Positions 468 to 60,300 of a stretch of 64,000 nucleotides of DNA are shown here, one piece after another. The position numbers and the translations under genes were made by a program. The first letter of the stretch is position 1; each line of letters begins with the position of its first letter. The stretch is from Mobula hypostoma (Eukaryota). Location: assembly GCF_963921235.1 (NCBI RefSeq), contig NC_086097.1, positions 48,548,001-48,612,000 of the forward strand, given 5' to 3'. A model generated the notes under the pieces. That model made no database searches, was not told the origin of the DNA, and was given only the letters and a program-made list of their open reading frames with translations.

Positions 468-2232
468 TGTGTCAGGTTTCAGTGGGACTCAAGTGCAGAC
501 CAATGAATACTTTTTCACCAGGATTTATTAAGGACCACAAAGGCAACAGTCTTTCAAAAACAGAAGGCAGGCACAAATCCAAAATGGCAGGCAGAGGTCT
601 TACCCAGGAAAGGCAGTCAGGCAAGGGCAGACAATCCAGAGCACACAGGCAAAAATCAGGTCCAAGAACGGGCAAAATCCAAAGCACAGAATCAGACAAA
701 ATCAGTTGGCAGAAGTCACAATAACAGACTAGGACAACACAAGTCAGAACTGGGATGAACTGGCAGAGGATGCTAGTCAAGTTGAGGTTTAAATGGACAG
801 GGTAATGAGTGAAAATTAGAAACAGGTGGGTGCAAATGAGGAGACAAGCAGGTAGTTGGAGGAAGTCCAAAAAAGGAAAGGGGCTGGGTCAAACCAACAT
901 GGGAGGTTTCAGAGGGATACCTTTAGTCGGGTAGGGAATGATATCGCGAAAAATGTGGAGTGTTTGATCTGAGGATAAGTCCTTCAGTAGTTTATCCGGT
1001 TGTAGCTCCATGGAAGCTTGGCTCCATAGACTGGCATTTGTTAGAGGTAAAAAGGAAAGAAAGATATAAAACAGATTTGGTAAATGCATTTAACTGTCAT
1101 GTGATGGAAAAGTATAGTGATTATACTCACATTTATACGGATGGTGCGAAGGAACCTGAAACAGGAGTGACAGGGTTTGGGGTGGTAATACCAGCAAAAG
1201 AAATTGGAATCAGCAGAAGAACATCTAATAAGTTAGGGGTGTTTACAGTGGAGATGCTGGCAGTGTTGATTGCGTTGCAATGGGTGCAGAAAGCCAGACA
1301 AGCCAAAGCATTGATATGTTCAGATTCATCCTCAGTTCTAGCAAGTTTAAGGTTTTTTCACACAAACGGTCGGCAAGATGTACTTTATGAAGTCCTTCAG
1401 TTAGTTACAAGAATTGCAAATCAGGGAGGTCAGGTAAAATTTCTATGGGTTCCAGCACATGTAGGGGTGAAGGGGAATGAGAGGGTGGATGAGTTGGCAA
1501 AGAGGGCGTTAAAGAAAGTAAATGTGGAAATGCACATTAGTATCAGTAAAGCAGAGGTTAAGTGTGTAATCTGGGAAAAAGTCAACCGAATGTGGCAAGA
1601 AAGATGGACAGGGAGGGGAAAGGGAGGCATTTATATCAAATACAAAAGAGTGTTGCAGGTACTAGGGTAGGTAGTGGAAACAGAAGAGAGGAAACTGTGT
1701 GGACTAGGTTAAGGCTGGGGCATTGTGCATTAAACAAAACATTGAAAATGATAGGGAAACACCAGACAGGATTGTGTGAGAAATGTCAGGAAGAGGAGTC
1801 AGTAGAACATGTAGTTTTGTGTTGCAGGAAGTATGGGATACAGAGAGAGATGATGAGAAATAAATTAAGGGAGTTGGGGATGCAGGAATTCACATTAAAA
1901 GGGTTGCTGGGCATGGGTGAGAGAGCACAAGTCCAGGTATTTTTAGCGTTTTTAAGGGGTACAGGGGTTTTTTATAGAATATGACGAATAAACAGGAATA
2001 GGATACTAGGATGGTCAAAGATGGGAGGGTGAAGTGTAGGTTTGTGTATATATATATATATATATATATAAAATGCACCATTAAGCTGGATGCCAACCGC
2101 TGTAAAACAAGATACAGACAGACAGACAGAACCCACATGGCCAGGTGAAAGAAAACAGAAATTAAAGACCATCGTCATCCAGAGCTACCAGCAGAGGCCC
2201 TTCGACCCAGTGTTCAGGCCAGATTCTTAACA
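468..2232 (-). mobile_element. Solo LTR (Gypsy-type, about 530 bp without its insert), interrupted by a Nimb-like LINE
   Basis: TG(TGTCA)...TTAACA termini. TTTATT at 524-529 is AATAAA on the minus strand. GGGACTCAAGTGC matches the GCA(T/C)TTGGGTCC motif of the other LTRs in the window. Imperfect TSD ctct/ttct. Confidence 0.7.
903..2129 (+). mobile_element. 5'-truncated Nimb/I-group LINE: RNase H plus C-terminal CCHC knuckle, frameshifted
   Basis: ORF 960-1670 has RNase H motifs IYTDG, VEMLAV, CSDS and WVPAHVGVKGNERVDELAK. ORF 1562-1984 has TRLRLGH and CEKC...EHVVLCC. 3' end is aatgcaccattaagctggatgccaaccgc plus a (CAGA)n tail. 11-bp TSD aaccaacatgg (892-902) / aacccacatgg (2130-2140). Confidence 0.85.
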
Positions 2233-2480: not shown

Positions 2481-4450
2481 AACAGATAATAATAAATCAG
2501 GCTTTATCAGTAGTTTTTAATTGCCAGACATCATAGGCAGATTGCATTGATACAACTTAAGACCATGATGTATCAGGTAACTTGAAGTAAGCAAAGCACC
2601 GATTAATAAATCTTTCAACACTAAATCCTCTGTTTTCAATGGCACAATAGCTGAACCTGTGAACATTTTATTTCCAAGCACAGGTACAAGGTGGTTTACA
2701 ATAGTGTCCATTAGCAGAGATGATTGGTTTCTACCCGATATCTGACCTTGTAGTTGAGACTTAACTAGCGGTACAATATCAGTTTTGCCTTCTGCTGCTA
2801 CCTCAGTATCATTTCCATCTCTCCCACAGAGCTAATAGGCATTAGGAGAAGCATTAATCCAGATAAATGAAAAATTTAGCAAAGAAACTGAAAATAAAAG
2901 TAATCTAATCAGTGTGTGAAAGTTTTCAACTGAAATCTCATTATACAAAGATTAAATTGTTCTTATTTCTCTTTCCAAAAATTTTTTAATTTAGCTGAAC
3001 GGTAAGGTTTAAACCCTACTCAACATGGCAGGATTAAGATTTATCTGATCCTTAAAATCTTACGAAAATAATTCTTGTCAATCAAATAGTACCCATTTCT
3101 TGTTCTCTTTCTTGTTTAACTGCTGTGTAAATTAATTTTGTATGTTTTATTTCTGTAAAATGTTACTGCTGAAAAATCTTTGACCTTTCTTATTTCTTAG
3201 GTTCTGTTCTTCCTTGTATTTACATTTTGTTGAGGCTCCTCTGTGTACAGCGTCAGGCAGATTCGCTGCAGTATGCCAGCTGAGTTTGCTGGCATGTACC
3301 TAGATTGTTTTCAGGAAGCTTTATAGACGCTACACATGGTGTCTCTAGGCAGCATGAGAAATGAGAAGCTCATTGTTTACAATTGATTACTCTCCCAGTG
3401 CAACACCTCAACACTACTTGTTCTGGGAAGTGTTACAGGACTCTTAATAATATGACCACTCCATGATTCAGTGCAGGTGGGATAATTATAAGTTTTGTTA
3501 ACAATACGAACATCATACATTTACAATCCACAATGATCAGTTTATCAGAGTGAAGGTAGGACTGATTAGAGATAAAGGTGGGAAGATGTGCCTGGAGGCT
3601 GTGGAAGTGAGCGAGGTCCTCAATGAATACTTCTCTTTGGTATTCACCAATGAGAGGGAACTTGATGATGGTGAGGACATTATGAGTGAGATTGATGTTC
3701 TGGAGCATGTTGATATTAAGGAAGAGGAGGTGTTGGAGTTGTTAAAATACATTAGGACGGGTAAGTCCCCAAGGCCTGACGGAATATTCCCCAGGCTGCT
3801 CCACGAGGCGAGGGAAGAGATTGCTGAGCCTCTGGCTAGGATCTTTATGTCCTCGTTGTCCACGGGAATGGTACCAGAGGATTGGAGGGAGGCGAATGTT
3901 GTCCCCTTGTTCAAAAAAGGTAGTAGGGATGATAGTCCGGGTAATTATAGACCAGTGAGCTTTACACCTGTGGTGGGAAAGCTGTTGGAAAAGATTCTTA
4001 GAGATAGGATCTATTGTCATGGTCCGGATCGGGGTCCCTTCAAATTTACTTTGTTTATGTTACGATCTGGACCGTTGACTCCCTGTTTCCCTTTGGTTCT
4101 CTGTTTTCCCGTGTCCCTCGGCTTTGGTGATTGGAGGCAATTACTCTTGACTGAATTGGTAGTTTATAGTCTCCGGCTTTCAGCTGTTCGGTGTGAGAGC
4201 GTCTGCAAAGTCACCAAAGGTACGACGTGCCAATGTCATCTGGCCGGAGCAAGCCTAGTCTCTGCCGAAGCATGTGCCGGTAATTCGCCTTTCCTCACCA
4301 GAGCAACCCGGTCCAGTTACCTCGCCAAAGCGAGCCTGCAAAGTTTCCTCACCGAGGTGGGTCCGTCAGTTAACCTGCCGGAGGGAATCAAGAACCACTG
4401 TCTACTGTTCCCAGGCCGAGTCGAGAGCTCGCCACTACCCGGAGGCTCAG

Positions 4451-4680
4451 AGTCAAGTCCTGGCTCCGGCGGAATTCAAGTTCCAAGTCAAGTCCTGGCC
4501 CTGGCGGCATCCAAGTACCACGTCCAAGTCCAAGTCCTGGCAGCATCCGAGTACCAAGTCAAGTCCTGGCCCTGGCGGCATCCAAGTACCAAGTCAAGTC
4601 CTGGCCCTGGCGGCATCCGAGTACAAAGTCAAGTCCTGGTCCTGGCGGCATCCAAGTACCTAGTCAAGTCCTGGTCCTGG
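4451..4680 (+). repeat. 35-bp minisatellite (about 6.5 copies) inside the LTR
   Basis: Unit caagtcaagtcctggccctggcggcatccaagtac; period 35 (e.g. 4555 and 4590). Confidence 0.9.
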
Positions 4681-4828
4681 TGGTCTGTGATTCCTGTCCT
4701 ACCCCCCTGTCTGAATCCCTTCTCTGCCCCCCTCGCCTCTAGCCCTCGTCTGTAGCCCTCGCCTGCACCTCGGTCTAGTTCTATCACTGGAGCTAGATAG
4801 GAACTGTGTTGCTCTTTGGTGTTTGTCT

Positions 4829-5016
4829 TGTCTTGTCCTCGCCTCCATGGGGTAAGTCAGGCCGTCTTGCCATTGCCCCGTGGGGAGTCATGTCTTGTCC
4901 TTGCCTCTGTGGGGTAAGTCCGGCCGTCTTGCCATTGCCCCGCGGGGGGGTCGTGTCTTGTCCCACCTCCGTGGAGTAAGTCAGGCCGTCTTGCCGTTGC
5001 CCCGCCAGGGGTCATG
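4829..5016 (+). repeat. 62-bp tandem repeat (3 copies) inside the LTR
   Basis: gtaagtc(a/c)ggccgtcttgcc recurs at 4852, 4914 and 4976. Confidence 0.9.
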
Positions 5017-7439
5017 AGTCCCGGCATTATGTCCTGTACCCAAGGAGGGGTCTTGGCTCTGTGTTCTGTGCATGTGTCCATGGTTCCATGTACCTGCTCT
5101 CCTGAGACCTAGGCTCTGTTTTCCATGTTCCTCCTCTCCCTAGCCCATGTCATGTCCATGTCTGGTTCTGGGGTCCGAGCCCAAGGCAAGACCCAGGTAC
5201 TGGGTCCTTGCCCAGTCTCGGGCTCGGAGTCCATACCCTAGCCTCTTCATGTCTCCTCTAGTTCTGGGAGCCGATTCCGAGTCCAAGCCCAGACCCATGG
5301 TCCCAGCCTAGTCGTAGTCCTCAGTCCTTGTCCAGTTCGCTATTCCTACTCCTGCCTTGCTCTCCTGGTTTCGAACAATAAACTAAATTTAATTAACCTC
5401 ACAAGATGTGTCTTGCATTTGGGTCCACCCTATGCCCCCGCCAGTGTGACATCTATGGGCACTTAGAGAATCATGGTCTGATCAGGGACAGTCAGCATGG
5501 CTTTGTGAAGGGCAGATTGTGTCTAACAAGCCTGATAGAGTTCTTTGAGGAGGTGACCAGGCATATAGACGAGGGTAGTGCAGTGGATGTGATCTATATG
5601 GATTTTAGTAAGGCATTTGACAAGGTTCCACATGGTAGGCTTATTCAGAAAGTCAGAAGGCATGGGATCCAGGGAAGTTTGGCCAGGTGGATTCAGAATT
5701 GGTTTGCCTACAGAAGGCAGAGGGTCATGGTGGAGGGAGTACATTCAGATTGGAGGATTGTGACTAGTGGTGTCCCACAAGGGTCTGTTCTGGGACCTCT
5801 ACTTTTCGTGATTTTTATTAACGACCTGGATGTGGGGGTAGAAGGGTGGGCTGGCAAGTTTGCAGATGACACAAAGATTGGTGGTGTCGTAGATAGTGTA
5901 GAGGATTGTTGAAGATTGCAGAGAGACATTGATAGGATGCAGAAGTGGGCTGAGAAGTGGCAGATGGCGTTCAACCCAGAGAAGTGTGAGGTGGTACACG
6001 TTGGAAGGACAAACTCCAGGGCAGAGTACAAAGTAAATTGCAGGATACTTGGTAGTGTGGAGGAGCAGAGGGATCTGGGGGTCCATGTCCACAGATCCCT
6101 GAAAGTTGCCTCACAGGTGGATAGGGTAGATAAGAAAGCTTATGGGGTGTTAGCTTTCATAAGTCGAGGGATAGAGTTTAACAGTCGCGATGTAATGATG
6201 CAGCTCTATAAAACTCTGGTTAGGCCACACTTGGAGCACTGTGTCCAGTTCTGGTCACCTCACTAAAGGAAGGATGTGGAAGCATTGGAAAGGGTACAGA
6301 GGAGATTTACCAGGATGCTGCCTGGTTTAGAGAGTATGCATTATGATCAGAGATTAAGGGATCTAGGGCTTTACTCTTTGGAGAGAACAATGATGAGAGG
6401 AGACATGATAGAAGTGTACAAGATAATAAGAGGAATAGATAGAGTTGTTAGCCAGCGCCTGTTCCCCAGGGCACCACTGCCCAATACAAGAGGACATTGC
6501 TTTAAGGTAAGGGGTGGGAAGTTCAAGGGGGATATTAGAGGAAGGTTTTTTACTCAGAGAGTGGTTTGTGCATGGAATGCACTGCCTGAGTCAGTGGTGG
6601 AGGCAGATACAATCGTGAGTTTAAGAGACTACTAGACAGGTATATGGAGGAATTTAAGGGGGGGGGGTTATATGGGAGGCAGGGTTTGAGGGTTGGCACA
6701 ACATTGTGGGCCGAAGGGCCTGTAATGTGTTGTACTATTCTATGTTCTATGTTTATAGGTAAAACCATAACATTAGTCCAGTATTTTTCATTGTAACTGT
6801 GGAATTAAAAATATTTAACTGTCAAATAGACATCAATCTCTGGTTGATTACACAGTTTCAAAATTCAACATCTTACTTTCAAAATAAAGCTGCAATGATG
6901 CAATAATATTTGTTCTTGAAGCCGATAACCTGATTTATCCTTGTCTAGGGTATCCAAGTTAGAGGTAAATAATAATTGCTTTGGCCATAGGAACGTTTTG
7001 GAACAGGTTCCCTTGCTGAAATATCCCACTTTGCATGCTATCCAACAAATCAGACTCTTAATCTATGATTCCAAAATCTGTGCTCTTTGAACCTTTATGT
7101 ATATGCAGGAGACACCTATAAACAAAAATTGTTTTTGATGTTAGTATTAACTGACAGAAGTCACTCTGGTCTCCTGATCATCCAGAGCAAGAGATCCAAA
7201 TCACATGTTGTCGCACCAGTTTTTGATAGAAACAACGATCTTTTATTACTCCTGGTACTTATCTCAAGCACAGTTTTCTTTGGTTCTTATACTGGAAGTC
7301 AATGAGCACTAATGATATTGCATTAATCCCTCATAATAAAACTGCCTGAGCTTTATCTCATATCATTCCTATGATTCCAATTTTAACACCAAGTGAACAG
7401 TAATCCTCCCAGAGTGGAATTTTTTTTCTCACTATCTTA

Positions 7440-8430
7440 AATGGACACCCTATTAATTTTTAGATAAAAATCCCTATTTCTAGGTTCTCTTTCAAGAGGA
7501 GAATCCACATCCACCCCAGCAAGACCACTCAAAACTTTATACATTTCAGTCAAATGCCTCTTTACTCTTCTAAATTCTCATAAATATGCAGCAAGCCAAA
7601 CTGGCCCAAACCTTTCTCCTAAGACAATGTGCTCATTAGTCTAAACTGGTTACAGTGCATAGACATCTGTTCTCAAGTAAGGAGACCAATGTGATATACA
7701 TTATCTCTAACATCATCTCACAACTGCCCAGTGTATCTGAACCACAGACTCCTTGCTTCTGTATTCAGTTCCCTGAGCAATAAGCAATAACATTCTGCTT
7801 TCTTAAATACAAGAGATTCTGCAGACGCTGGAAATCCAGAACAACACACACAAAATATTGGAGGAACTCAGCAGGTCAGGCAGCTTCTATGGAGAGGAAT
7901 AAACAGTCAATGTATTGGGCTGAGACCCTTTATTCCACTTACTCCTTTCCATAGAAGTTGCCTGACCTGCTGAGTTCTTCCATCATTTTGTATGTGTTAC
8001 TCTACATTCTGTTCTCCTTCCCAATTTGTTGTTAAAAATGCATACCATCGTTTTGCATCTTGGAGTTCTGCAGTCATTCACCAATAGATAAAAAACTTTG
8101 TTTTATTTTTTCTCTTAAAACAGACTATTTTGTGTTTTCAATAATAAACTCCATTTGCCAAATCTTTGCCAACTGCCCAATTTTTCCATGCCCCTTTGTA
8201 GCTTTCTTATGTCCGCTTCACAGCTTACTTCCCCACCTATCCTTGCTTCATCAGCAAATCTAACAAGTTTTCAGTACCTCGGCCCACATCACTTATATAA
8301 ATTGTAAAAAGTTGAAGACCCAGAACCACCCAGTCCCAAACCGTTCCTTACAAGTTGCAATTCAGAATAATGTAGTGATGCCTACTTTCTGTTCTTATTT
8401 AGTTAGCATATCTGTTATCCATGCAAGATG
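7440..8430 (-). mobile_element. Old degraded CR1 fragment
   Basis: Reverse-strand similarity to the CR1 RT C-terminus and 3' region seen in other copies; interrupted by 7805-8003. Confidence 0.5.
7805..8003. mobile_element. Palindromic Penelope-type short element with decayed hammerhead remnant
   Basis: 60-bp inverted arms at 7843-7902 and 7939-7998. The spacer carries cagtcaatgtattgggctgagaccctt. Flanking direct repeat acattctg at 7790-7797 / 8004-8011. Confidence 0.75.
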
Positions 8431-8564
8431 TTACTTCAACAGGAGATTTTATTTTTCTTTATGTCACCCTCCTGACTACTTTTAGAAATATTTTCAATGT
8501 TAAGCTATGAAAAATACTCCATCCTTTTCAGTTAGCCTTTTCTAAGCTCTCTCGCTCTCTTCTA

Positions 8565-8970
8565 GCTGCTGCTATCAGGAAGGAAGTACAGGAGCTTCAG
8601 GTCCTGCGCCACCAGGCTCAGGAGCAGGTATTACCCCTCAATCACCAGGCTCTCGAACCAGAGGGTATGATTTTACTCAACTTCACTTACCCCAACACTG
8701 AACTGATTATATAACCTGTCGACTCACTTTCAATGACATTTCAACTCACGTTCTTGATATTTATTGCTTATTTGTTTATTACCATTATTTTGTTTTTTTT
8801 ATATTTAAGCAGCTTGTCCTTTGTGCATAGACTGTCCGTCTTTGCTGTGTGCAATTTTTATTGAGTCTATTGTGTTTCCTTGTATTTACTGTGAATGCCT
8901 ACAAGCAATTGAATCTCAGGGTAGTATATGGTGACGTACTATATATGTATTTTAATAATAAATTGAATCT
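8565..8970 (+). mobile_element. Rex1/Babar-type LINE 3' end
   Basis: ctgctatcaggaaggaagtacaggagc...caccaggctcaggagcagg matches the ORF2 C-terminus (LPSGRRYRS...TRFRNS) of other copies; 3' UTR with AATAAA. Confidence 0.7.
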
Positions 8971-9785
8971 AACTGCTACCACCATCAATACAAGCATCAA
9001 AACAAAATCCCACCAAATCTTAAATAGAAGTTCAAAAATTCAAAAGATCAATGGTTTGCTGAGTAAAACCCTGAATAATTTATAGTACAGCTGGGCTGAA
9101 AGCTCACTGGCATTTCCATCGACTTTACCAGTTTTTGGGAATCAATGGATCAGCATTCTATTTACGCTCACTTCAAGTACCCAGCTTCGACGTAGCCTCA
9201 GGCTTGCAGGGGAGACATCTAGCAATATCAGATGCAGCAGGTTTGCTGTCAAGGGAAACAAATGTTCCATCTCTCAGAATAAACTCAATCGTGATCACAG
9301 TTGAATATTGCTGAAATGACACTAGTTGGTGTTGTCTTGAAACCTCAGACATCAGGTTTACTTTGGTTAGCCTTTATTCAGCACTGTATTGAAATATTGA
9401 TTTCCAGACAGAAGACGCTCTCAGACTGCAGTGATAGGGATTGCACCACTGCGACAAAGTAGGATTAGCAAGCCTCCATTTCATACAACGGCCTGGATTT
9501 TGCTACTGTTCCAGTGGCTTGTAGTTAACAGGCTGGCCGAGCAATTTAAAGAATTCCCACACACAGTAGTCCAGGAAGTTAAGTGCTTTAACTTTAGAAT
9601 TGAAAGGATAGACTATATCCATATTATTAAGATTGAATCTATGCTGAATTACTCACAATGCTGCTACAACTTCTACATTAAACTTCAAGGTTAAAATCCT
9701 AAAGATGATCTCAGTTCCATAAGAGTAATGACTGCAAATGATGGTGGTCTCACTATTAATATCACTGTAAAATAAGACCAGTGGT

Positions 9786-14335: not shown

Positions 14336-14479
14336 ATATTAACTCATTATAGGAGGCATAGATAGAGTAGACAGCCAGAATCCTTCTTAGGTAGAAATGT
14401 TGAACACTGGAGAACATTGGGGAAAGATTAAAGAGGAGTGGGATGAGTCAGTGGGATGAGTTGCAGCGTAAAAGAGAGA

Positions 14480-17340
14480 GAAAGTTGAAAAGGTTAATGG
14501 ATACAGGACTGAAGCTGTTGCATTTGAATATACCCAGTATACGGAAGGAATAAGCTTGATGATCTTCTAGCGCTGTTAGGTATTGGCAGGTATGACATTG
14601 TGGACATCACTGAATCGTGCCTGAAAGAAGATTATATTTGGGTGCTTAACATTCACAGATACACATTGTATCAAAAGGACAGACAGGTAGGCAGAGGGGG
14701 TGGGGTGGCTCTGTTGGTAAAAAATGGAATCAAATCCTTAGAAAGAGGAGATACAGGATCAGAAGGTGTTGAATCCTTGTGGGCAGGGTTAAGGTACTGC
14801 AAGAGTAGAAAGGCTCTGATGGGAATGATATACAGACCTCTGTACAGTAGCTAGGATGTGGACAACAAATTACAATAGGAGATAGAAAGCCATGTCAAAA
14901 GGGCAATGTCACGATAGTGATGGGGGATTTCAATATCCGAGTAGATTGGAAAAATTAGGTTGGTGCTGGATTGCAAGAGAGAGAATTTGTAGAATACCTA
15001 CGAGATCGCATTTGAGAGCAACTTATGGTTGAGCCCACTAGGGGAAAGACAATTCTGGATTGGGAGAAATGTATTGTTGTGTAACGAACCAGAACTGATT
15101 CGGGAGCTTCAGGTGAATAAACCATTAAGAGTCACTGACCAAAATGTGATGGAATTCACCCTGCAAGTTGAGAGGGAGAAGCTAAAGTCAGATGTATCAG
15201 TATTACAGTGGAGAAAGGGAATTACAGAGGGATAAGAGTGGAGCTGGCCAAAGTTGATTGGAAGGGAGCACTAGCAGGGATAACGGCTGAGCAGCAATTC
15301 AGAAGGTGCTGGAAAGGTACATTCCAAAGAAAAAAAATATCTTAAAGAGAGGATAACACAACTGTAGCTGAAAATGGAAGTGAAAGTTAACCTTAAAAGC
15401 AAAAGAGAGGGCATATAATAGAGCAAAAATTAGGGGGAAGTTAGAGGATTGGGAAACTTTTAAAAACCAACAGAAGACAGCTAAAATGCCACAAGAAGGG
15501 AAAAGATGAAAAACGAAGGTAAACTACCCAATAGTACTAAAGAGGATACAAGAAGTTTTTTCAGATATATAAAGAGTAAAAGAAAGGTAAGAGTAGACAT
15601 TGGACCGCTGGAAAATTACGCTGGAGAGGTAGTAATGGGGGATAACGAAATTGCGGACAAACTAAATAAGTATTTTGCATCAGTTTCATAGTGGAAGACA
15701 TTGGCAGTATGCCAGAAGTTTGAGAGTGTCAGGGGACAGAAGTGAGTGAAATTGCAAATACTAGGGAGAAGGTCCTTGTGAAACTGAAAGGTCTGAAGGT
15801 AATACCATCTGGACCAGACGGACTACACTCCAGCTTTCTGAAAGAGGTAGCTGAAGAGATTGTGGAGGCATTAGTAATGATCTTTCAAGAATTACCAGAT
15901 TCTGGCATGGTTCTGGAGGACTGGAAAATTGCAAATGTCACACCACTCTTCAAGAAGAGAGGGATGCAAAAGAAAGGAAGTTATAGACCAGTTAGCCTGC
16001 TCTCAGTGGTTGGGAAGATGTTGGAGTCGATTGCTAAGAATGTGGTTTCAGGGTACTTGGAGACAGATAATAAAATAGGACACAGTGAGCATGGTTTCCT
16101 AAGGGGAAATCTTGCCTGACAAATCTGTTGGAATACTTTGTGGAAGTAACAAGCAGGATAGGCAAAAGAGAATCAGTGGATGTTGTGTACTTGGATTATC
16201 AGAAGGCATTTGACATGAAGTTCCTTAACAAGATAAGAGTTCATGGTGTTACAGGAAAGATGCTAGCATGGATAAAGCATTGGCTGATTGGCAGGAGGCA
16301 AGGAGTGGGAATAAAGGGAACCTTTTCTGATTGGTTGCCGGTGACTAGTGGTGTTCCATAGGAGTTCTTGTTGGGACCAATTTCTTTTTATGTTGTATGT
16401 CAATGATTTGGGTGATGGAACTGATGACTTTGTGCTCAACTTTGCAGAAGATACAAAGATAGGTGGACAGGCAGGTAATGTCAAGACAGCAGGTAGGCTG
16501 TGGAAGGACTTAGATGGATTAGGAGAATGGGCAAAAAAGTAGCAAATGGAATACAGTGTTCAGAAGTGTATGGTTTGCAGTTTGGTAGAAGGAATAAAAA
16601 CCTAGACTACTTTCTAAATGGGTAAAAAATTCAAACATCTGAGGTGCAAATTGACTTGGGAGTCCTCGTGCAGGATTCCCCGAAGGTTAACTTGTAGGTT
16701 GAGTTGGTGGTGAGGAAAGCAAATGCAAGGTTGACATTCATTTCAAGAGGACCAGAATAAAAAAAGCAAAGACGTAATGCTAAGGATTTATAAGTCACTG
16801 GTGAGGCCTCACTTGGATTTTTGTGAGCACATTTGAGCCCTTATTTAAGAAAGGATGTGCTGACATTACGGAGGATTCAGAGGAAGTTCACGAGAATGAT
16901 TCCAGGAATGAAAGAAGCAATTCATGGCTCTAGGTCTTTACTCACTAGAATTTGGAAGAATGAGGGAGTACCTCTTTGAAACCAATTGAATGTTGTAAGG
17001 TCCAGATAGAGTGGATGTAGGGAGGATGTTCCTTGTGGTGGGTGAGTCTAGGACCAGAGAGCCCTGCCTCAGACTGGAGGGACATCCTTTTAGGATGGAG
17101 ATGAGGAGGAATTGCTTTATCCAAAGGGCAGTGAATCTGTAGAATTTGTTGCCACTGGCGGATATGGAGACCAGGTCATTGGGTGTATTTAAGGCGAAGG
17201 TTGATAGGTTCTTGATTAATCAGCACATAAAGGGCTACAGGGAGAAGGCAGGAGCATGGGGTTGAGAGGGAACTATATCAGCCATGATGAAATGGTGCAG
17301 CAGACTAGATGGGCTGAATGACCTAATTCTGCTTCTATGA
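14480..17340 (+). pseudogene. Decayed CR1 ORF2 (APE endonuclease + RT) and 3' UTR
   Basis: Fragments DITES, KDRQVGRGGGVALLVK, IYRP, EDWKIANVTPLFKK, YRPVSL, YLDYQKAFD, TSGVP and FAEDTK, broken by many stops and frameshifts; CR1 3' UTR at the end. Confidence 0.9.
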
Positions 17341-17799
17341 TCTTTTTACTGCCAACTGCCAACAGGACATCAGCCATCTTGACTTCAACACTCCTCTCTC
17401 CAAATCCAAAGAGTGGTAGGTGTTTGATGCAGCTGACAGGGTGCTGTAGAAAAAGACACAATAACAGCATCCAAGAAGCTTTTAGATAGGCACATGAAGG
17501 GAATGGAGGAATATGGATTATTTGCAGGCAAAAGAGATGAAGTTAATTTGGTATCATGATTGGCACAGATATTATAGGCTGAAGTACCTGTTTCTTTGTT
17601 GTACTCTTCTACATTCCGTTTCGATAATGATGCAAATATTTACTCTTTACCTTAATCTATACTTTACTATGATCCCCATTATGAACTCTTAATGGAGTGT
17701 TTGTTTGGATACTCACTGAGTAGGAAGTTTAGGATGCCGAGAGTATGCAATATCCTGTTAGTATAAAAGCTGCTCTCATGATGAGCTGAGATAAAAGGC

Positions 17800-19584: not shown

Positions 19585-20395
19585 ATAGTAAATATCGAGA
19601 ACATGAGATGAAGAGTCCTTGAAAGTGAGTCCATATGTTCTGGGAACAGTTCAGTGATGAGGCAAGTGAAGTTGAGTTAAGTTATCCCCTCTGGTTCAAG
19701 AGCTTGATGGTTGAGAGGTAATAACTGTTCCTGAACATGGTGGTGAGAGTCCTGAGGCTCCCATACCTTCTCCCTAACACAAAATAATCTGCAGATGCTG
19801 GGGTCAAAGCAACGCTCACAACACGCTGGAGGAACTCAGCTGGAGTTCCTCCAGTGTGTTGTGAGTGTTGGTCGTACCTTCTCCCTGATGGCAGTAGCAA
19901 GAAGAGAGCATGATCTGGATGGTGGTGTTCCTTGATGCTGGATGCTGTTTCCCTGTGACAGCGCTCCATGTAGAAGTGCTCAATGGTGGATGGCTTTACC
20001 CGCAATGGATCCATTACTTTTTGTAGGATTTTTTGTACAAGGGCATTTGCTGGTATGCAACAAGTTGCAATATATTCTCCACCGCACATCAATAGAAGTT
20101 TGTCAAAGTTTCATATGATATCCCGAACCTTTACAGACTTCTAAGAAAGAAGAGGCACTGAGTGCTTTCTTTGTAATGGCACTCACATGCTAGATACAGG
20201 ATGGATCCTCTGAATTGATAACACCAAGGAACTTAAAGTTGCTGACCCTCTCCACCTCTGACTGGTTCATGGACCTCCTTTTTCTTCCTCCTGAACTCAA
20301 TAATCTTGTTGTTGCTAACATTGAGTGAGAGTTTGTTGTTGTGGGAGCACTTTGTCACTTTTTTTTCCTCCCTCCTATATGCTGATTCTTCACTA
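19245..20395 (-). mobile_element. Rex1/Babar-type LINE 3' fragment(s), containing (TAGA)/(TAAA)n and a Penelope-type insert
   Basis: ORF 19682-20092 contains HHPDHALFLLLPSGRRY...TTMFRNSYY; 3' UTR tttattatcaaagtac. Confidence 0.8.
19776..19872. mobile_element. 97-bp palindromic Penelope-type insertion
   Basis: 28-bp arms at 19810-19837 and 19843-19870 (2 mismatches). 14-bp TSD cataccttctccct (19762-19775) / cgtaccttctccct (19873-19886). Confidence 0.85.
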
Positions 20396-26720: not shown

Positions 26721-28859
26721 TATTCTTGTTTCATAGGATGGTGAAAGAAAAACTATGGCCTCTGATAAAACAAAGCCCTCACGGAAACAACCTAACAAAA
26801 GCATTTGGCAAAACAAGTGTAGAACTTGAAGTAACAATGTCTGAGGAAATTGCTGAAAATATTGTCATCTTTTAAATAATTGTAACATTAGTTGTGGAAG
26901 GGGAAACAGAGAAATGCTATTGTATTTCCATTGGCAGCTTTTCTGATCACATTGTGTATAATCCTATAAACTGACCTTCACACAGAGGAAACGCCCGACA
27001 AGATGATTCTATTAATAGTTTTATTTTCTTGACTTCTAAGCAATAAATAGTGGGAAATTTGATTATCAGGATCAGGCATCTTGACTATATAAAACTAATG
27101 CATTCTAATGATACAATTTATTGTTTAAAATGGGAAGGGAGAGAAAGGTGTTGGGATTCACCAAGTGATTAAAATAAGTTCATAAGCAATGCTATAAAAG
27201 GATAATAAAATCTAAATCTCATTTGTTCCACTTCAGTTTCTTCATATGCATAAAACTCCATAAAACAGCATCTGTGTCCAAATAATGAGCTGAAAAGACA
27301 CTGCACAGTTGCTAATTCGATTTACATTCTTAAGCTCATTGTACCATATACTTCCATTCACTAGATATCTGGGCCAATATAATTCTTCAGAAATAAAAGG
27401 GAATTAAAAATTGGAGCTATTTAGTTACCATAATGAGATTGGCAGCAGATTGACAGTACACAGAGGTGTCAAGTTTGCTCTGATAGTCAGTCATCTTTTA
27501 CCTGGATTGTTGCTGTCTTTCCAATTTATTACAATTCTCTGCAATAAAATCTTACTTAGCCCTGTTGCCGATAAAAGTCCAATCAGTTTCTCTGAGATGA
27601 CTTCTAACTCATACAATTTTTGACAAGACAGAGAGAAAACATCGAGATGACTCTTACAGAATAAACTACTTATAGTAAGAAGAAAGGACAGCCATAGCAA
27701 AATGTTAGGGGTCATTAATTCTGGCATCATTTTCACAAGAGAGCAAGGAGTATTCTGGGAGTGGAATCATTAGCGTTTTGTCTGCAACTTCTTTTCAACA
27801 AAGGTAATCTATATCAGGAGGCAGCAAGTGAAAAACAACCTTGTACAAATGTTTTAAACTCACATTGTACAGTGTGGTTACGTCCTGCAATTGCTTAAAT
27901 ATACTGCTGTTTTTGTTCAATATTGTGATTTTTTTGTGTTTTACAGCACTAAAATATAGATTGTGTGTCATGCATGAAAGATACGGACTGAAATATGGAC
28001 TGTGAAGTGGACATTCTGTGATCCTGTTAGAGAAGAATTGTGTGGTGTGCCTACATTGTAACAATATAATAATGACTGGAACACAGTCTGTTGCAGAACC
28101 TTGAAACTTTAACATGTAGATAGTATTCAGTTGATTTATTTTGTTTTGTGCATATATAACATGCTTCATGTAATTATATAGCATTCCAGGTATTTAAATA
28201 TCAGATCAGCTTAATGGGCCTTTAGATATCAGAGTGATTCAGGAGCTATCTAAAAACAAGAGTAATGGAAACACAGCTGATCAAGCAACATTTCTTGGGA
28301 GAGATAAAAATTAATGTTTCAGTTTGATGACTTTCCATTCAAACCAAACAGGAGGTTGTGGAAATAAAGACTTGTCACTGGAAGGATTGCAGCGTTTCCA
28401 CAGCATGACTTACAACCTCTTTCTCAAGGACATTTAGGAATAGGCAATACATGTTGGTTTTTCTGGTGGTGACCAGACCTCATGCATTAAATTCAAAGAA
28501 ATTGGGTGGAAATGTGGACAATTGAATATCTAAATTGTCCATTTACTGTCTATTTCATAGGATATCATCGTATATTTACATAGTCTTTCTGTCTGAGCTA
28601 ATGCGTGTTTGAATACTAAGCCTGCACAAAGCTCATGATGCCTGCCATCCTGTACACTTTGGAGATATAAATTACCTACAGCAGGCTCTTCATAGCACTG
28701 GAGAGATATCATTAATACTGCATCCATAAAATCCTTCCAAGTCCATTGGCAAGATAAGCAAACCAACATTGAAGTCCACTGTCAGTTCAACATCCTCAAC
28801 ACTGAGGTGATAATTACACTCATTTGGCCTTGTTGGACATGTATGATATGTAACAGTTT

Positions 28860-30142: not shown

Positions 30143-30515
30143 TGAATTGAATTGACTTTATTTCTTACATCCTTCACATACATGAGGAGAAAAAATCTTC
30201 ATGTTACATCTCCGTCTAAATGTGCAATGTGCAATCATAGTAATTTATAATAAATAGAAGTGACAATGTAATATAGAAATACATTTAAATCAGTGTGAGT
30301 TAATCAGTCTGACGGCCTGGTGGAAGAAGTTGTCCCGGAGCCTGTTGGTCCTGGCTTTTATGCTGTGGTACCATTTCCCGGATGGTAGCAGCTGGAATAG
30401 ATTGTGGTCGGGATGACTACAATTGCACATTGCACATTTGAACTGAGACTTAACATAAAGATTTTTACTCCTCATATATTTGAAGGATGTAAGTAATAAA
30501 GCCAATTCAAATTCA
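30143..30515. mobile_element. Two Rex1-type 3' ends fused head-to-head
   Basis: Minus-strand copy at 30143-30418 (HPDHNLFQLLPSGK...NRLRDNFF). An inverted copy of its terminal ~93 bp lies at 30422-30515. Confidence 0.85.
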
Positions 30516-30612
30516 GAGCAATACACGCAAAATGCTGGAGGAACTCAGCAGGTCAGGCAGCATCCGTGGAGAGGAATAAATAGCAGACGTTTCAAGCTGT
30601 GACCCTTCATCA
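30514..30612 (-). mobile_element. Penelope-type short element truncated within its hammerhead core
   Basis: aaaatgctggaggaactcagcaggtcaggcagcatc; the minus strand reads TGATGA-AGGGTCACAGCTT-GAAAC-GTC. Confidence 0.75.
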
Positions 30613-30689: not shown

Positions 30690-31465
30690 CATAGTTTAAC
30701 ATGGTAAGGAAGGCTAATGCGATATTTGCATTCATTTCGAGAGGACTAGAATATAAAAGCAGGAATGTAATGCTGAGGCTTTATACGACATTGGTCAGAC
30801 CACACTTGGAAGATTGTGAACGCGAGGATATCTGCAGATGCTGGAATTTCAAGCAACACACATAAAAGTTGCTGGTGAACGCAGCAGGTCAGGCAGCATC
30901 TCTAGGAAGAGGAATATTGTGAGCAGTTTTTGGCTCCTTATCCAAGAACGAATATGCTGGCTTTGGAGAGGGTCCATAGAAGATTCACGAGAATGATCCC
31001 AGGATTGAAAGAGTTAATGTATGTGTTTTGTTTAATGACTCTTAAGCTTCTATTTGCTAGAATTTAGAAGAATGAGGGGGATTTCATTGAAACCTTTCGA
31101 ACATTGAAAGGCCTAGATGGAGTGAATGTGGAGAGGTTGTCTATTCTAGTGGGGGAGTCTAGGCCCAGAGGGCACAGCCTCAGAATAGAAGGACGTTCCT
31201 TTAGAACAGAGAAGAGGAGGAATTTCTTTAGCCTGAGGGTAGTAAATCTGTGGAGTTCATTGCCACAGATGACTGTGGAGGCCAAGTCATTTGGTACACT
31301 TAAAGTGGAGGTTGACAGATTCTTGATTAGTCAAGGCATCAAAGGTTACAAGAAGAAGGCAGGAGAATAGTGTTGGGAGGGATAATAAATCAGCTGTGAT
31401 GGAATGGCAGAGCAGACTTGATAGGGCCAAATGGCCTAATTCTGCTCCTATAGTCTTCTGGTCTT
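30690..31465 (+). mobile_element. CR1 3' fragment
   Basis: ORF 31104-31370 GESRPRGHSLRIEGRSFRTEKRRNFFSLRVVNLW; CR1 3' UTR. Confidence 0.88.
30820..30910 (-). mobile_element. 91-bp Penelope-type insertion in CR1
   Basis: Same subfamily as 45410-45531 (gttgctggtgaacgcagcagg). 12-bp TSD ggaagattgtga (30808-30819) / ggaatattgtga (30911-30922). Confidence 0.85.
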
Positions 31466-44065: not shown

Positions 44066-45392
44066 ATACACCTACTGGTGCTACTTGGACACGTCTTCAG
44101 TGATGAACTCAGGGTCATAGGGTGCTTCGTGTCTTTAATCATCAGACAACCTTGACCGGGCGACGCACCCGGGGGTGATCAGCCCCCGACTTGTGTCCAA
44201 GTGGTGCACTAATCCACGGATCCCCCCTCCGGATCCACAGCCACCGCGAGGCCTTTTCAGCAGCCTCCAGAATGTTCTTGGTGGCTCTTCTGCACTGCAG
44301 TCCTTTAACTCCAAGGAGTTTTAGAGTCCGCTGTAATGAATGGCCAGCAAAGCCCCAGCACCCAACTTCGACTGGCTCACAGTGAGCTCTCCAGCCATTG
44401 CTCCAGCATTTTGCAACAAGATCTGTGTATCTAGCCCTCTTGCGCTCGTTGGCCTCTTCAATCCGGTCTTCCCTGGGGACAGTAAGTTCCAGCAGGACCA
44501 CTTGCTTTGTAGACTCCGATATTAACACCATGTCTGAGTGGAGCAGAGTGGCTGCGATGCTCCCTGGGAACTTGAGCTGACTCTCTAGGTTGACTTGGAG
44601 CTGCCAGTCTCATGCAGTGGCAAGAAACCCTCCCGAGGAGCTAGGCCGATGTTGAGCCTTCTCCCCTGCTCTAATGAAGGTGATGGACTGTTTGGGAGCG
44701 TGCTGATTTTTGCTGTCTTGAATCTCTGTGCTGATTGCGTCCGCCATAGACCTTAGGACTTGGTCATGGCGCCAACGGTATCGCCCTTCCCCCAACGCCT
44801 TCGGGCAGCAACTTAGGATATGCTCCAAGGTGCCCCTCTTCTGACACAATTGGCATGCTGGACTGTTTGCCATGCCCCACCTGTGCAGGTTGGCCGGGCT
44901 TGGGAGAACGTCATAGACTGATTGGATGAGAAACTTGATGTGCAATGTTTCGGCTCTCCAGAGCTCTGTCCAGTTGAGCTTGCGAGGTTCCACATGCTCC
45001 CAACTAGTCCAGGCGGCTTGTTTGTAAATGCCAACCATCTTGTTGTATCGTTCATCCTCCACTTCTGCTCGTATCTTGTTCTGAACCAGTTGATGCTTCT
45101 CCTTTCCGTGGGTTTTGTCGTAGCGTGGTTTGGGAAAACAGCCCAGTCCTGCCCGCCCCAACACCACAGTGCCCACCAAAGTGTTGTGCCTCAGCCGTGC
45201 CTCCGCTCTGTCGACAGCTTCCTGTGCCTGCCACTTCCTTCCGGTCTTTACGCGGATTCCTGCCGAAGTGACTTTAACATCAGAGGAGTCTCGGTACATC
45301 ATAACCTCCCTGGCTCGAGTGACTTTGAATTCCTCTGATAGGCCGCTGATGGGGAGCTGCAGCTTGGTGGAATGCCCATACAGGACAATGCC
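44066..45392 (-). mobile_element. 5'-truncated HERO-type non-LTR retrotransposon (CCHC + restriction-like endonuclease)
   Basis: CQLCQKRGTLEHILSCC, RYRWRHDQVL, and SDMVL...LLELTVP..D..EEANERKRARY. ORFs 44610-45416 and 44142-44531 are in one frame, separated by a single TGA. Confidence 0.85.
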
Positions 45393-45409
45393 TATATTAA
45401 ATTGAGCAA

Positions 45410-45531
45410 AAAACAAGGCCTCTTCCTTCAGTTAGTCCTGACGAAGGGTCTCGGCCTGAAACATCGACTGCGCCTCTTCCTACAGATGCTGCCTGGCCTG
45501 CTGCGTTCACCAGCAACTTTGATGTATGTTG
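45410..45531 (+). mobile_element. 122-bp Penelope-type insertion carrying a hammerhead motif
   Basis: Perfect 14-bp TSD attaaattgagcaa (45396-45409 / 45532-45545). Confidence 0.88.
45433..45470 (+). ncRNA. Minimal type I hammerhead ribozyme motif (probably inactivated by CpG decay)
   Basis: Stem I TAGTC/GACTG, core CTGACGA at 45438-45444, stem II AGG/CCT, GAAA at 45458-45461, NUH triplet ATC at 45463-45465. Confidence 0.75.
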
Positions 45532-45720
45532 ATTAAATTGAGCAACTTGTTTCCTATGTATACAGCAGCAGCCCCTCTCTACTATGAGAATTGGTGATCC
45601 CTTGCTGTAGACAGGCACCAAACTAACTGTGCTGCTGTTGAGGAGAGTGAGGCATTGACTTCCTTTAGCCAACCTGAACCGGTTAAATTGTTTGGTTCAT
45701 ATCAGTTCTGCATCATATAT

Positions 45721-46401
45721 TTGAGGAGGAGGAGAAGATGGCGGTGCGATGCAGCTCGCACGGCCACTCCGGTGAATGATATCTGTTATCTGTCAAGTAG
45801 GGTGCCATGCACAATTCTGATTTGATGGAGACAGACGTGAGAGAACGAAGGAACATCTGGAGAAACTTCTGAGATGCGTTTTTCGCTACCACTGTTACTG
45901 TGTGATCCTGAATCTCCGGAGGGGAAGGCCCCGGATCCTCGGCTTTGCTTGTTGCTCGGCGGCCGGGGCGGGGTCAAGGTGCTCGGCAGAGATGGTGCTC
46001 GGTGCTCGGTGTCGAAGGTCTGCTCGAAGGCTCTAAGTTTTCAGACGGACTCAGAGTTAGCTGAGGTTGGGTGCTTCCAATACATCGACAGTTGTCGGTG
46101 CCTGGAGGTTTATGGCAGAGAGAGTTCCTCCCTTCTGCCGCCAGCTATCGGGGACTGTCGGGAGTCAATCAGAACTTTGAGACTTTTTCTTACCATTCCC
46201 TTGGTCTGTTCTTTATCAAATTATGGTATTGCTTTGCACGGCTGTAACTATATGTTATAACTATGTGGTCTTGTCAGTGTTAGTCTTTGGTTTGTCCTAT
46301 TTTTTTTGTGATATCACTCTGGAGGAACATTGTATCTTTTCTTAATGCATGCATGCATTTCTAAATGACAATAAACGAGGACTGAGTGTCCTCATAATCT
46401 A
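45721..46401 (+). mobile_element. Non-autonomous retroelement (LINE 5' UTR + 3' UTR type)
   Basis: GC-rich, no credible ORF. AAGATGGCGG at the 5' end. AATAAA, GAGGAC/GTCCTC hairpin and TAATC tail at the 3' end. Possible TSD atatat (45715-45720 / 46402-46407). Confidence 0.7.
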
Positions 46402-50554: not shown

Positions 50555-50850
50555 GTGGTGCTGGAGACCAGATGCAATGGTCAGATGGGAAACAGAATAC
50601 TGGAGGCGCTCAGTGGATCAAGCAGCACCTGTAGAGGCAAAAGGTATAATTCAACATTTCTAGTCAAAACCCCTAATCAGGACTGAGAGGGAACAGGAAA
50701 TATTGCTGTGTGTATCAATACAAAGTGGGAAGCGGGTGGGATGGAGGCTAGTAGGAATCAGATGGCGAGGGGATGTTGGGCAGATAGAACCAGTGAAGGT
50801 GGGAGGGGAAGAAGTTGGGATGGAAACTAGGAAGTGACATAGTTCAGCCA
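50555..50850 (-). mobile_element. Older Penelope-type element with decayed hammerhead remnant
   Basis: The minus strand of 50648-50685 reads CAGTC-CTGATTA-GGGGTTTTGACTA-GAAAT-GTT; upstream tggagg..ctcag..gcagca block. Confidence 0.6.
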
Positions 50851-51081
50851 ACAAGCTGCTAGTCCTGTTCAGATCACTCCCTCAGGCTGGGACAGGAAAT
50901 AGATTACGCCCAGTACTTGCTTTGGATTGGGGGAGATTGAAAGTTAAAGTTGATAAAGCACTTGCAACACTTACAAAACATTCACTCATCTTCTTGTACT
51001 CTTTCTTTGAAATAAACATTAACAGAACAGATGGGCCCTATAGATGGATAAATAGCACAGGAACAAAGGAGATGCATAAAA

Positions 51082-51836: not shown

Positions 51837-53044
51837 GCGTAAAACAATACTCCCTACCCCCTCAAAGCCAATGCTGCCTTACAGTTCTCTTCTGCCTTGG
51901 GAAATCTACTGTTCCTTATGTGTGAGTTTGGATCATGTGTAACTACATGAAATGATCAATGCCACATTTCATTCTTTCCCTCCCAGGCAACATGTTTTTG
52001 ACAGCACTGGACTATAACCCATCTCAGGATGCTGATTCTAACTTTAGGCCTTGCACTGATACATTTTTGCATCTGGGCATTGTTCAAGCCTTTAGTAAAA
52101 TTCAATACTTCCACATCACTGGCTTTCTCTGATTGTGTCACAACAGGCCAGTTCTGCTGAAAATCCATTCAACTCAGTTCTTTCCTGCTATGCTGGGCAT
52201 TCCCCAGTTCTGATTTTACACGTTCCTGTGTTTATATTAACTATATCAATCAGATAGCTCCTATCTGAGATATTCCCTTTAGCCTATCTATCCCACCTCA
52301 GGCCGATTTTTCAGCCTTTCCTGTACCATAAGGCCAGAAAAGGGTTTTGCACTGTTTGCTGATAATGAGTTCATACCTCCAACTAAAACAGAAATTGTCA
52401 AAAACACTCAGCCGGTAGTATCTGTGGAAAGAGAAATAAAGTTAACATTTTAGATCGACAATATATCAGTCCCTAAATGTGTTCATCTGGGACAATTTTC
52501 CCTCCTCTGCTTAGCTGGAGGGTAAAAATTCTAAGTTTACATTTAGATATTAAACCAGATAATTGTATCAGGAATGGCTGAGTGTGTCATTTATGCAAAT
52601 CTGGAAATCTGACTTAAACATTAAATATTCTGTATGGATGCCTTGGATGCATCCTGACTGAAGAGCATTTCCACCACTTTCAGGACTGGTCATCCTATAT
52701 GTTGACGCTCAGCGATTTAAAGTTGCTGACTTCCTCCACTGCTGATTCCCATTGTAACATGATACATGTGTCAAAATGCTAGAACTCCACCACGCCACAT
52801 ATAGGCCACATGAGGAAACTAATGATTATGGTAGGAGGCAATTCAATGATCTGGGTTGTTGGTGATCAGAAACCTGGAGAGAAGATGTTCTTGAGGTTCA
52901 CGAGAGACACTGGGGATCAGGCAGGTGTGAGGGTGGGCGTGTGTGTTGATGGTTGGTGACTGGAGCGGAGGACAGAGTGATGTGGGAAAAGGCAGTCAGT
53001 GGAAGAGGGATTATACTCTGCAGAGAAAGGTGAAATGATGACCA

Positions 53045-57371: not shown

Positions 57372-60300
57372 CCTTACATTGTTCTATTTATCATGAGTGT
57401 CTTTAGCAATCTCAGAAAAATCCTTACCCTTTCTTCCCAACAAGCAAGCAGCTAATCAAACGTTGTGTGAAGCCTCTTGATCACCGGAGGAATATTTAGT
57501 TCCATTTGGACTTCAAATTCAGATTTGGAAGCACATAATGGAGACCACGTGCTATGGTGAAGAAGGTGAAAAAAATATTTACTTAAATCCATCTCCAGTA
57601 AATACCACAAGGAATGCCTTAAAAATGAGAAGTAGGTCCACATCCACCTCTGGAGAGCAATAAATGCCATATTTGGCGACTCACTGTGGGCATATGGCAT
57701 TCAAGTCAGATTGGCCTCTGACTATTACACTTCACTAGTTGCCAGCTGACTACAGCAAAACACATATCTTACATATTTGCGAACACAATGTTGTGTCTTC
57801 TGTAAGATCAATGAAATTGAAGGCAATCACATTTACAGAATTTCCTGAAACCTTTCTGGAGCCCCATGCCACTTTGCTTGTCATCGAATGAAATCTTTCA
57901 TAAATTTGCTCTGTTCTCAGACAGGCTTTTCAGATACCGGAGTATAGTTCTGCAGCAAAGGACTCAGTTCTTTGGTGCTCACTTCTAAATAAGAAAGAGT
58001 TGGAGCTATGGAATCAAAGGCTGGAATTTACTGTGTATGCCAACCTTTGCTAAAATAAAGGGGTAAATAACAGTGACGAAAAACAAGAGGAGGTTGGTGA
58101 TGATGGCATGGAAGTGGGGTGGGGGGTGGAGAGATGGAAATTTGCCTTTGGAAGCTAGTACTCATCATGAATTTGAGTATCAGCTGCTGGTCACAGTCAC
58201 CTCTACACGTTCGGCTCAATGTTCAGCATCACAGCCAGAGAGGAGTTTCTCTATTGTTTATACTGGTGCAATACTGGAAAACAACTGGAAGAAAGGATGT
58301 TTGCAAAAGTTCAAAGCAGTTCATTCGGCCTCAGGGACAAAAAAAGCTTTGTCCATTTGAAGAACTCTCATTGTTATGTGCCATATATTAAGTGTACATT
58401 AGTTCCTCACAGCAGTCAGTTCTGGATGTGGATAACAGATATGTGACTGAAACAGTTCTATCATCCAGGAATCTTCATCAAGCACACCCAAGATATTAAC
58501 TAGATATGTGTGACACAGCTGTAATCACACCCTCCAGTGCAATCTACTTTATTATATATCACTTGAAATTGAAGTTTAAAATATTGATGTAAATGGACTT
58601 GCTGAATTATTCATTACAATGACTGAATCTGAATGTAGACTTTTCAATCTGTATTGCCGCTTTTGGAATTTCCTTGCATTTCTGTTTCTCACCCTTTCTT
58701 CAGTAATCTTTAGTTCAGAGCATATAGCGTAGTACAGGCACCCACACTGTAACCAGATAAGTTTCATCACAAACAGGATATCTAACTGATTTCCTCACGG
58801 GACAGCCAAGAACTTCCACTAAGTCATCCCCAGAGAATCTCGCACCAGTGTTCAAAAAAGGAAGGAAAGGAGGCAGATGCACAGAATGGTTGAGCATATA
58901 AATTTAAAGATCTATTAAAATGATCAAGTAGGAGACAATAAAGAGCGTGACATGCTATAGGTACAGAAATAAAATGTGAATGCTTTTTATAATCTATAAT
59001 TATGTTGGATAAAGTGCAAGCCATTCCACTGAGATATTGCTGGACAGCCATTACTGTCATTTGAAGAACAAAATTCATCCAGTAAAAAAAAAATGGATTT
59101 CAACTCCATACTTTTATAATTTTAATTTAAGTTTGGTAATTAATTCGCACATTACAGTAGAAGGGCCTTTGTATTCAAACAGCCTTTTATTCCATCATTT
59201 CTGTAGACAAATGCAGGCTCCCTATGATGAATTGAATAGCTTTCGGTGCAAAGTGCCAAATTAATGCAAATCATTTTGAAAAGTTAATCTTCTTGGGGGC
59301 AGAGTTCATAGGTTGTGAATGAGCTGTTTTTCAGCATGAGGCCATTTGCAAAAACAATTTTCTACATTATTTATCTTGCCATTTCTCTTCACATTAGTCT
59401 TTTAAGTATCACTTTGCATAATCATTATTGCACTCTGTCTTAGTTCTGCTTTACAATGATATTGGTTTTCTTCACCAAACCATAAAAGAAAATTTCATAG
59501 TTTAGACTTGTATTATAACAAGATCTCAATGGTGCAATAAATGTAATCAAAGTAAATATGCCTTCCAGCAGGGTTATCGTTTTAGCAGATTCCCAGAGTT
59601 CCTGGCAGGCTGCTTTCTGTGGGAATTATCAAAAAATCCACACTTTTTATTATACTTGCAGTATCCTGAAATCCTGCCCCATTGCCTGGAGAACAGATTC
59701 CTCAATAGGTGAGGCTGCTGTGTGAAGAGTGACCGAGTCAACTATTGGCGCCTGTGACAGGTGGGACTGGTACTACTGCTTGCAAACAGGGGCCAAGGGC
59801 ATCACTGTAGATGGTAGCACCCATGACGATTGACCTGCATGGCAACCCTGACATCAACCAAAATAGACTGTGCCTTATTGCCAGAGGGAGAGATTGTGTG
59901 CATTTAAATTCATGTACTGAGCCCTCCCACCCTTAAAGTCCATGAACGTGCCATGAATCTTTTCTGCAGTGGTCATTGGCAGCAGACAAGTAAAACTGTC
60001 CGCCTACCCTCTGACGCATGTCAAATACTACAGCTGTCCAGGAAAGGCAGCTGCTTGACATGCTGAGAGCTGCTGGCATTTACTGATTTTATTTCAGATT
60101 TCCAGCTTTCACACAAAAACATTTTGCTTTTGTATGAAATTGTTCAGCTTCCAGAGCTCCGAGCCCCTGAGCTGGCCTTCGGAGTTGCTCCTGGAATAGA
60201 AATATGCTTTGAAATCTGTTTTAAAAAGTCTCTTTGGTCCCAGCATGCCAGCCGACAGTCTGCTGCCAGCAGAGGGTTCTCAGCTTGTGCTCCAAAGCCC

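Follow-up and report, generated by a model that had tools for sequence, protein, structure and literature searches.

We suggest that the 122-bp insert at 45410-45531 of the window (the whole 64-kb stretch of DNA analysed) is very probably a dead-on-arrival copy of the 3' pseudo-LTR (pLTR) of a Penelope-like element (PLE), truncated at its 5' side and belonging to a family hugely amplified in a ray (Mobula-like) genome. The insert contains a minimal type I hammerhead motif (45433-45470, plus strand), detected by sequence, RNAfold, contig depth and a descriptor search. This hammerhead motif is already known from PLEs, and what is new here is its extension to a ray family. On its own the locus is of little import, being one young decayed copy documented together with its empty site. 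The family is a natural data set of tens of thousands of copies or more, in which the 3' ends are of two kinds and the 5' ends are scattered. Its start-position statistics could test whether the PLE hammerhead cuts the reverse-transcribed RNA, a question left by the anole in vitro work.

The insert and its target site

The insert lies between perfect 14-bp target site duplications (TSDs), both found by repeat match on the plus strand. The left one (45396-45409) is AT-rich, begins with ATT and is present as a single copy at the empty site; the right one (45532-45545) is spanned by a junction contig of organism A (run X1, 45510-45752) with 0 differences. We detected the empty site in one organism B contig, which joins 45395 directly to 45532 and skips 136 nucleotides (122 + 14), with 14 letters that fit either side of the joint. 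The insertion is real and recent; either it postdates the divergence from organism B or the site is polymorphic.

On the 5' side the family contigs part from the reference at 45420, and 45410-45419 (plus strand) is therefore non-family filler of 10 nt at the 5' junction. The contigs delimit the rest (45420-45531, plus strand), which we assign to a Penelope-type terminal repeat as a 112-bp piece, truncated at its 5' side and ending in a short, tail-less 3' end. An earlier note, made from the sequence alone, had described a 122-bp TSD-flanked mobile element; the 122-bp insert, its 14-bp TSD and the empty site agree with this, but 122 bp is not the family unit, since it is composed of filler and a truncated piece. 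Within the filler, 45411-45417 matches in reverse complement the bases 45546-45552, located just past the right TSD (rough post-hoc chance about 0.007), suggesting a templated fill-in from the opposite target strand.

An older non-LTR retrotransposon remnant (44145-45391, minus strand) is the insertion target rather than a partner, and the insertion landed just outside it, within a few bases of the point where its 5' side is truncated. This 5'-truncated remnant was recognised by long open frames and a zf-RVT domain (Pfam, E=7.3e-07), and contigs of its own family end at 45391. The short side of the organism B joint has 60 letters inside the non-LTR element, which therefore predates the insertion. 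The remnant presumably belongs near the RLE-type (HERO-like) elements, which it resembles.

The hammerhead motif and the family state

The motif at 45433-45470 has the CUGANGA and GAAA boxes, the NUH triplet, stems I and II and the type I topology. Stem I has 5 bp (5' strand 45433-45437, 3' strand 45466-45470); the core CUGACGA (45438-45444) is followed by a bulged A45445, and stem II (45446-45449/45454-45457) has 4 bp and a 4-nt loop. The GAAA box (45458-45461) precedes C-A-U-C (45462-45465), and the predicted cut site is between 45465 and 45466. The type I layout proposed by the earlier note, with no loop on stem III, was thus recovered, and it was the single match of a relaxed minimal hammerhead (min-HHR) descriptor in the 64 kb. 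On matched-composition Markov random sequences the descriptor gave at least one match in 2/300 (order 1) and 1/300 (order 3). The minimum-energy fold of the 38-mer consists exactly of stems I and II (RNAfold, -7.0 kcal/mol), and its folding energy is no better than that of shuffles (z = 0.20). An Rfam scan at E<=5 returned no hammerhead among 13 matches, which is unsurprising because the motif is without a stem III.

According to the RNAfold minimum, the best reading of stem II is the bulged A followed by G.U, G-C, G-C and U.G. The stem II described previously (A-U, G-C, G-C with a 7-nt loop) also satisfies the descriptor, but the minimum-energy fold prefers the reading with 4 bp and a 4-nt loop. 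The canonical G10.1-C11.1 pair is absent under both readings.

The published consensus has a U-rich stretch, CUGANGAH, a G..C pair and GAAAN followed by a palindrome and NUH (PMC4209133 supplement), and the motif fits it, as expected from the Penelope-type minimal hammerhead claimed earlier. Compared to the min-HHR motifs in PLE pLTRs (Xena, Poseidon and Neptune of fishes, and those of coelacanth and Xenopus; PMC4209133), the topology is the same type I with no loop 3, and the family shares with them the palindromic 15.2/16.2 positions, the bulged base after A9 and the U-rich 5' flank. No chondrichthyan motif was found in the parts examined of the alignment or table in the PMC4209133 supplement.

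Contigs of four runs (X1, X5, X9 and X17) were aligned to 45200-45800 at 80% likeness, giving 57,517, 41,630, 11,459 and 3,697 aligned contigs, respectively; X1 is possibly the window's own sample and hence not independent. Most of these contigs cover the insert, in agreement with the high abundance suggested by the earlier note. Summed depth ratios in X1 (about 2.5e4-7.6e5) are not copy numbers and give the order of magnitude only, which is roughly 10^4-10^5 family copies, apparently higher than the approximately 4,000-9,000 reported for PLE motifs (PMC4209133). X17, which is only guessed to be RNA, contains abundant family sequence with no cover of 45557-45703 and is uninformative on the expression of this copy.

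At 45463, G accounts for 79, 68, 74 and 95% of the aligned depth in X1, X5, X9 and X17, despite the bias towards the reference letter. The majority is G in all four runs, and the family state of stem III is therefore the palindrome ACGU, which the earlier note had taken to be ancestral. In this copy stem III reads ACAU, which is not palindromic. The six window copies that cover the site have the dinucleotide CG once, CA three times and TG twice; CA and TG together among the siblings are the two-way pattern of CpG deamination, and the CpG decay proposed for this copy is borne out by these counts and by the family majority.

C at 45457 represents 21, 31, 74 and 16% of the depth in X1, X5, X9 and X17, and the subfamily with U11.1 is dominant in organisms A and B. 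We infer a subfamily trait rather than decay: the G10.1.U11.1 closure would characterise the subfamily that these two organisms amplified, with reference bias possible. A G.U closure is also present in cichlid, Xenopus and coelacanth PLE motifs (PMC4209133 supplement).

Two majority-allele copies can form a stem III of four pairs, while a homodimer of this copy forms 2/4. The modelled double hammerhead of this copy is at +0.6 kcal/mol, in comparison to -8.5 with G at 45463 and to the minimum free energy of -28.2 kcal/mol. The predicted fold of the G-allele monomer is a rod, with the core paired to the bases of the cleavage site (-11.0 kcal/mol), and the probability of a hammerhead-shaped fold is 0.001. 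The rod at 45438-45465 would be an 'off' state of the family G allele, a trap that the decayed copy is predicted to be without. As a calculation only, the predicted rod fits the need of the anole PLE ribozyme for an element protein. The ribozyme of this copy is probably inactive.

Family anatomy and the relation to Penelope-like elements

Upstream of 45420 the family has a defined consensus, rich in pyrimidines and drawn from 238 X1 contigs and 244 X5 contigs (agreement 0.65-0.72), and a second subfamily departs from the reference at 45434. Behind 45531, 400 X1 contigs scatter into unlike flanks, and 140 contigs run on behind 45539 into a defined tail. The family ends in either of two ways on its 3' side, one of them with a tail of 30-40 nt: copies B, D and F are tailed and copies A, E and G are tail-less.

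The window has 11 family pieces at 8 loci, 10 of them detected by nhmmer at E<0.01 and the other being the second arm at 19843-19874. Four inserts are flanked by TSDs of 8-14 bp and have lengths of 91, 99, 122 and 206 bp, and two of the four are inverted. Sibling B (30820-30910, minus strand, 91 bp) is tailed, has no hammerhead and is flanked by a 12-bp TSD with 1 mismatch (30808-30819 and 30911-30922). Siblings D (minus strand, tailed) and E (plus strand, tail-less) form a head-to-head pair in the 206-bp insert (7798-8003, 8-bp TSD), and siblings F and G form another in the 99-bp insert (19776-19874, 12-bp TSD), with one arm tailed and no hammerhead. The old decayed copy H (50593-50686, minus strand) and further old copies at 28266-28326 (minus), 52406-52457 (minus) and 60034-60104 (plus) were found by nhmmer, the old copies having E values of 2.5e-05 to 1.4e-03.

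Sibling C (30509-30612, minus strand) retains GAAACGUC, as described earlier for its part at 30586-30612, but it is not an intact hammerhead, since C3 is replaced, stem I is missing and the core is broken. The TSD search found none at sibling C and none at the old copies. Directly at the 3' end of sibling C lies an element whose inverted arms are 98 nt long (30147-30510, 86% complementary), and this element may have deleted the sibling's TSD.

We read the window copies as truncated pieces derived from a Penelope-type terminal repeat, whose source RNA may be the autonomous element or a deleted derivative. PLE insertions are described with an optional 30-40-bp tail, an inverted 5'-truncated pLTR and a short TSD (PMC3846280, PMC8557442), and the anole Poseidon PAc was shown in vitro to cleave at ATT, to start reverse transcription internally at two sites and to copy uncleaved RNA (PMC11167929). 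The ray family agrees with these PLE insertion units (PMC3846280, PMC8557442, PMC11167929) in its two kinds of 3' end, its head-to-head inversions, an AT-rich target that begins with ATT and copies in which the uncleaved ribozyme is included. In comparison to the rotifer PLE, the TSDs are 8-14 bp here and 8-10 bp there, and no ORF was seen here. The variable ends, the tail and the inversions are those published for truncated PLE ends and do not speak for a family of separate, non-autonomous elements. Thousands of dispersed single motifs derived from truncated PLEs were reported by Cervera and De la Pena (2014; PMC4209133), and the ray motifs are likewise mostly dispersed singles from truncated elements in thousands of copies.

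The earlier note had favoured a dedicated non-autonomous family of about 122 bp. It is unlikely, in our estimate, that the copies derive from such a short ribozyme-bearing retroelement (SINE-like or a retrozyme monomer) with its own source RNA and with PLE protein acting in trans. All 11 window pieces are short and without coding sequence, the flank changes at 45434-45436 (607 contigs in X1; 471, 182 and 144 in X5), and several joints that go back to 45434-45435 hint at a preferred boundary at stem I. The 45434 boundary is, however, at least partly the upstream sequence of the second subfamily, and the defined consensus before 45420 continues beyond it. The 5' ends are scattered: the TSD-flanked sibling B begins 3' of the ribozyme, and A, C and D differ. 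The lengths range from 91 to 206 bp, and the tail and inversion patterns are explicable without a separate master. In line with the use of uncleaved RNA, X1 depth does not drop on the upstream side of the cut site (9.2M, compared to 8.3M just downstream). Rows beyond those listed (810 loose ends, 24 joints and 40 variants) may contain an excess of 5' ends at this site.

PLE-pLTR-derived retrozymes were reported in one chondrichthyan, with an average consensus of 363 bp (bioRxiv 10.64898/2026.07.22.740005). Non-LTR retrozymes are, like the ray copies, non-coding, PLE-related and provided with a type I hammerhead (PMC7229834, bioRxiv 10.64898/2026.07.22.740005). They are described as tandem units of fixed length with mostly canonical hammerheads, whereas the window copies are dispersed, variable and often without a ribozyme. 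We did not assign the family to the retrozymes, given the absence of tandem fixed-length units in the window and only rare tandem joints in the runs. No tandem family copy was found within the 64-kb window. The joints that go back are rare, for example 45470 to 45435 (36 nt, 2 X1 contigs), others having a depth of 50-118. They indicate rare head-to-tail duplications of the hammerhead itself (within 45434-45507) somewhere in these genomes, which are natural candidates for cis-dimers. Another very high-copy repeat begins at about 45724, and several contigs join the family 3' end directly to it, which suggests frequent adjacent insertion.

No PLE ORF tied to the ray family was found in the window by motif regular expressions, Pfam on 30 of the 254 ORFs and protein searches, and a profile made from 24 PLE endonuclease ends gave nothing beside the family copies in the window. 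Searching 120 PLE proteins against the window gave two weak remnants, 14460-14603 (minus strand, E=0.002) and 17327-17416 (plus strand, E=0.02), neither of which adjoins a copy. A pyrimidine-rich region upstream of copy H (50690-50900, minus strand) is possibly a decayed PLE 3' region and has no profile score.

A metagenome pattern in which only the core, the stem II ends and GAAACGU were fixed matched at least 122 stretches, and the base after the pattern was not G in 122/126 matches. Stem I, which is outside the pattern, had at least 3 bp in 52 of the 89 distinct motifs (mean of 16.1 and maximum of 26 in 1000 shuffles, which ignore relatedness). Flanks were fetched for 80 loci. In 24 of these, including 2 that had supplied the queries, a same-strand PLE endonuclease C-terminus was located 73-179 nt upstream of the motif; another arrangement of the endonuclease end and the motif was found in 1/80. 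One locus (L002:1061-3608) is a near-complete PLE with an ORF for reverse transcriptase (RT) and GIY-YIG (Pfam E values of 5.4e-05 and 0.001, neither reaching the gathering cut-offs), and has one direct and one inverted hammerhead motif. PLE-type hammerheads in inverted pairs were observed in five metagenome contigs (L002, L011, L038, L066 and L079).

These loci belong to other families with no DNA similarity to the ray family beyond the motif. They lend indirect support by showing what kind of element the motif form marks, and are no demonstration of an RT/GIY-YIG ORF in the ray family. We infer the PLE identity of the ray family, and in ray genomes a PLE ORF presumably precedes its repeat. 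The family-specific downstream pattern had 0 matches in viral contigs and 0 in metagenome contigs; six matches in bacterial genome contigs extend no further than 19-25 nt and were rejected as chance. PLEs are present in the elephant shark and expanded in the whale shark (genome papers). Our literature search found no paper describing the motif in rays or Penelope elements in Mobula, and neither shark terms nor two short words of family sequence matched the PMC8557442 supplement.

Proposed insertion steps and host transcripts

The insertion probably proceeded as follows, by analogy to the anole PLE in vitro. The GIY-YIG endonuclease of the element would have cut AT-rich DNA at ATT, and, with the still uncleaved RNA of the element as template, RT would have initiated internally at the tail-less site 45531, passed the hammerhead and halted after 112 nt. 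The 5' junction would then have been sealed by the 10 nt of filler, partly templated by the flank, leaving the 14-bp TSD. In the family, two motif copies would share the 4-bp ACGU stem III, probably aided by the element protein, and the lone copy would have lost the palindrome later through CpG deamination, being most likely inactive.

The pyrimidine tract at 45420-45435 (plus strand) has two AG dinucleotides (45430-45431 and 45434-45435), abuts stem I and is a candidate 3' splice acceptor. Helix I is where the intron of D. virilis Penelope ends (PMC4209133). An insert-derived peptide matched 2 of the 12 candidate longer proteins, both Mobula host gene models (97% and 91% identity), which places the family in rays. 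These models, P0001 and P0002 (a STARD3NL isoform and an uncharacterised protein), hold the element peptide and exit at the short 3' end; no PLE domains were detected in either. The P0002 model enters the element at about 45420-45435 and may do so via the candidate acceptor at the stem I edge.

We regard as very unlikely a combined scheme in which exonised or intronic copies of this highly abundant, dimer-dependent hammerhead, each provided with a splice acceptor at its 5' edge, pair in trans and the predicted 'off' hairpin is opened by the element protein, resulting in concentration-gated cutting of host mRNA, spread by a non-autonomous element with its 5' boundary at stem I. Also highly improbable is a working ribozyme, in this copy or the family, acting in host transcripts with a trans partner, or an exapted exon or regulatory element. 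The core and the 5-bp stem I are preserved, 3/4 stem III pairs would remain when this copy dimerises with one of the majority allele, family pieces are present inside the two Mobula gene models, and rare 36-nt tandem duplications of the motif occur. The insertion is nevertheless lineage-restricted, with an empty site in organism B, and hence has no sign of conservation. Published min-HHR monomers were without cleavage and the dimers had low activity (PMC4209133), the anole PLE ribozyme requires the element protein (PMC11167929), and the modelled double hammerhead of this copy is far above the minimum free energy. Dimer cleavage of min-HHR was described by Lunse et al. (via the review PMC6765202).

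A chance hammerhead layout in an unrelated repeat, which the z-score and the absence of an Rfam hammerhead would allow, has a negligible probability against a descriptor chance of at most 2/300, a family majority restoring a palindrome that the descriptor did not demand, and the stem I pairing and PLE linkage of the motif form elsewhere.

The window additionally contains an RNase H-bearing retroelement remnant at 942-1984 (plus strand; Pfam, E=2e-15) and two minisatellite arrays, 4451-4700 and 4825-5009, with 35-bp and 62-bp repeats, respectively.
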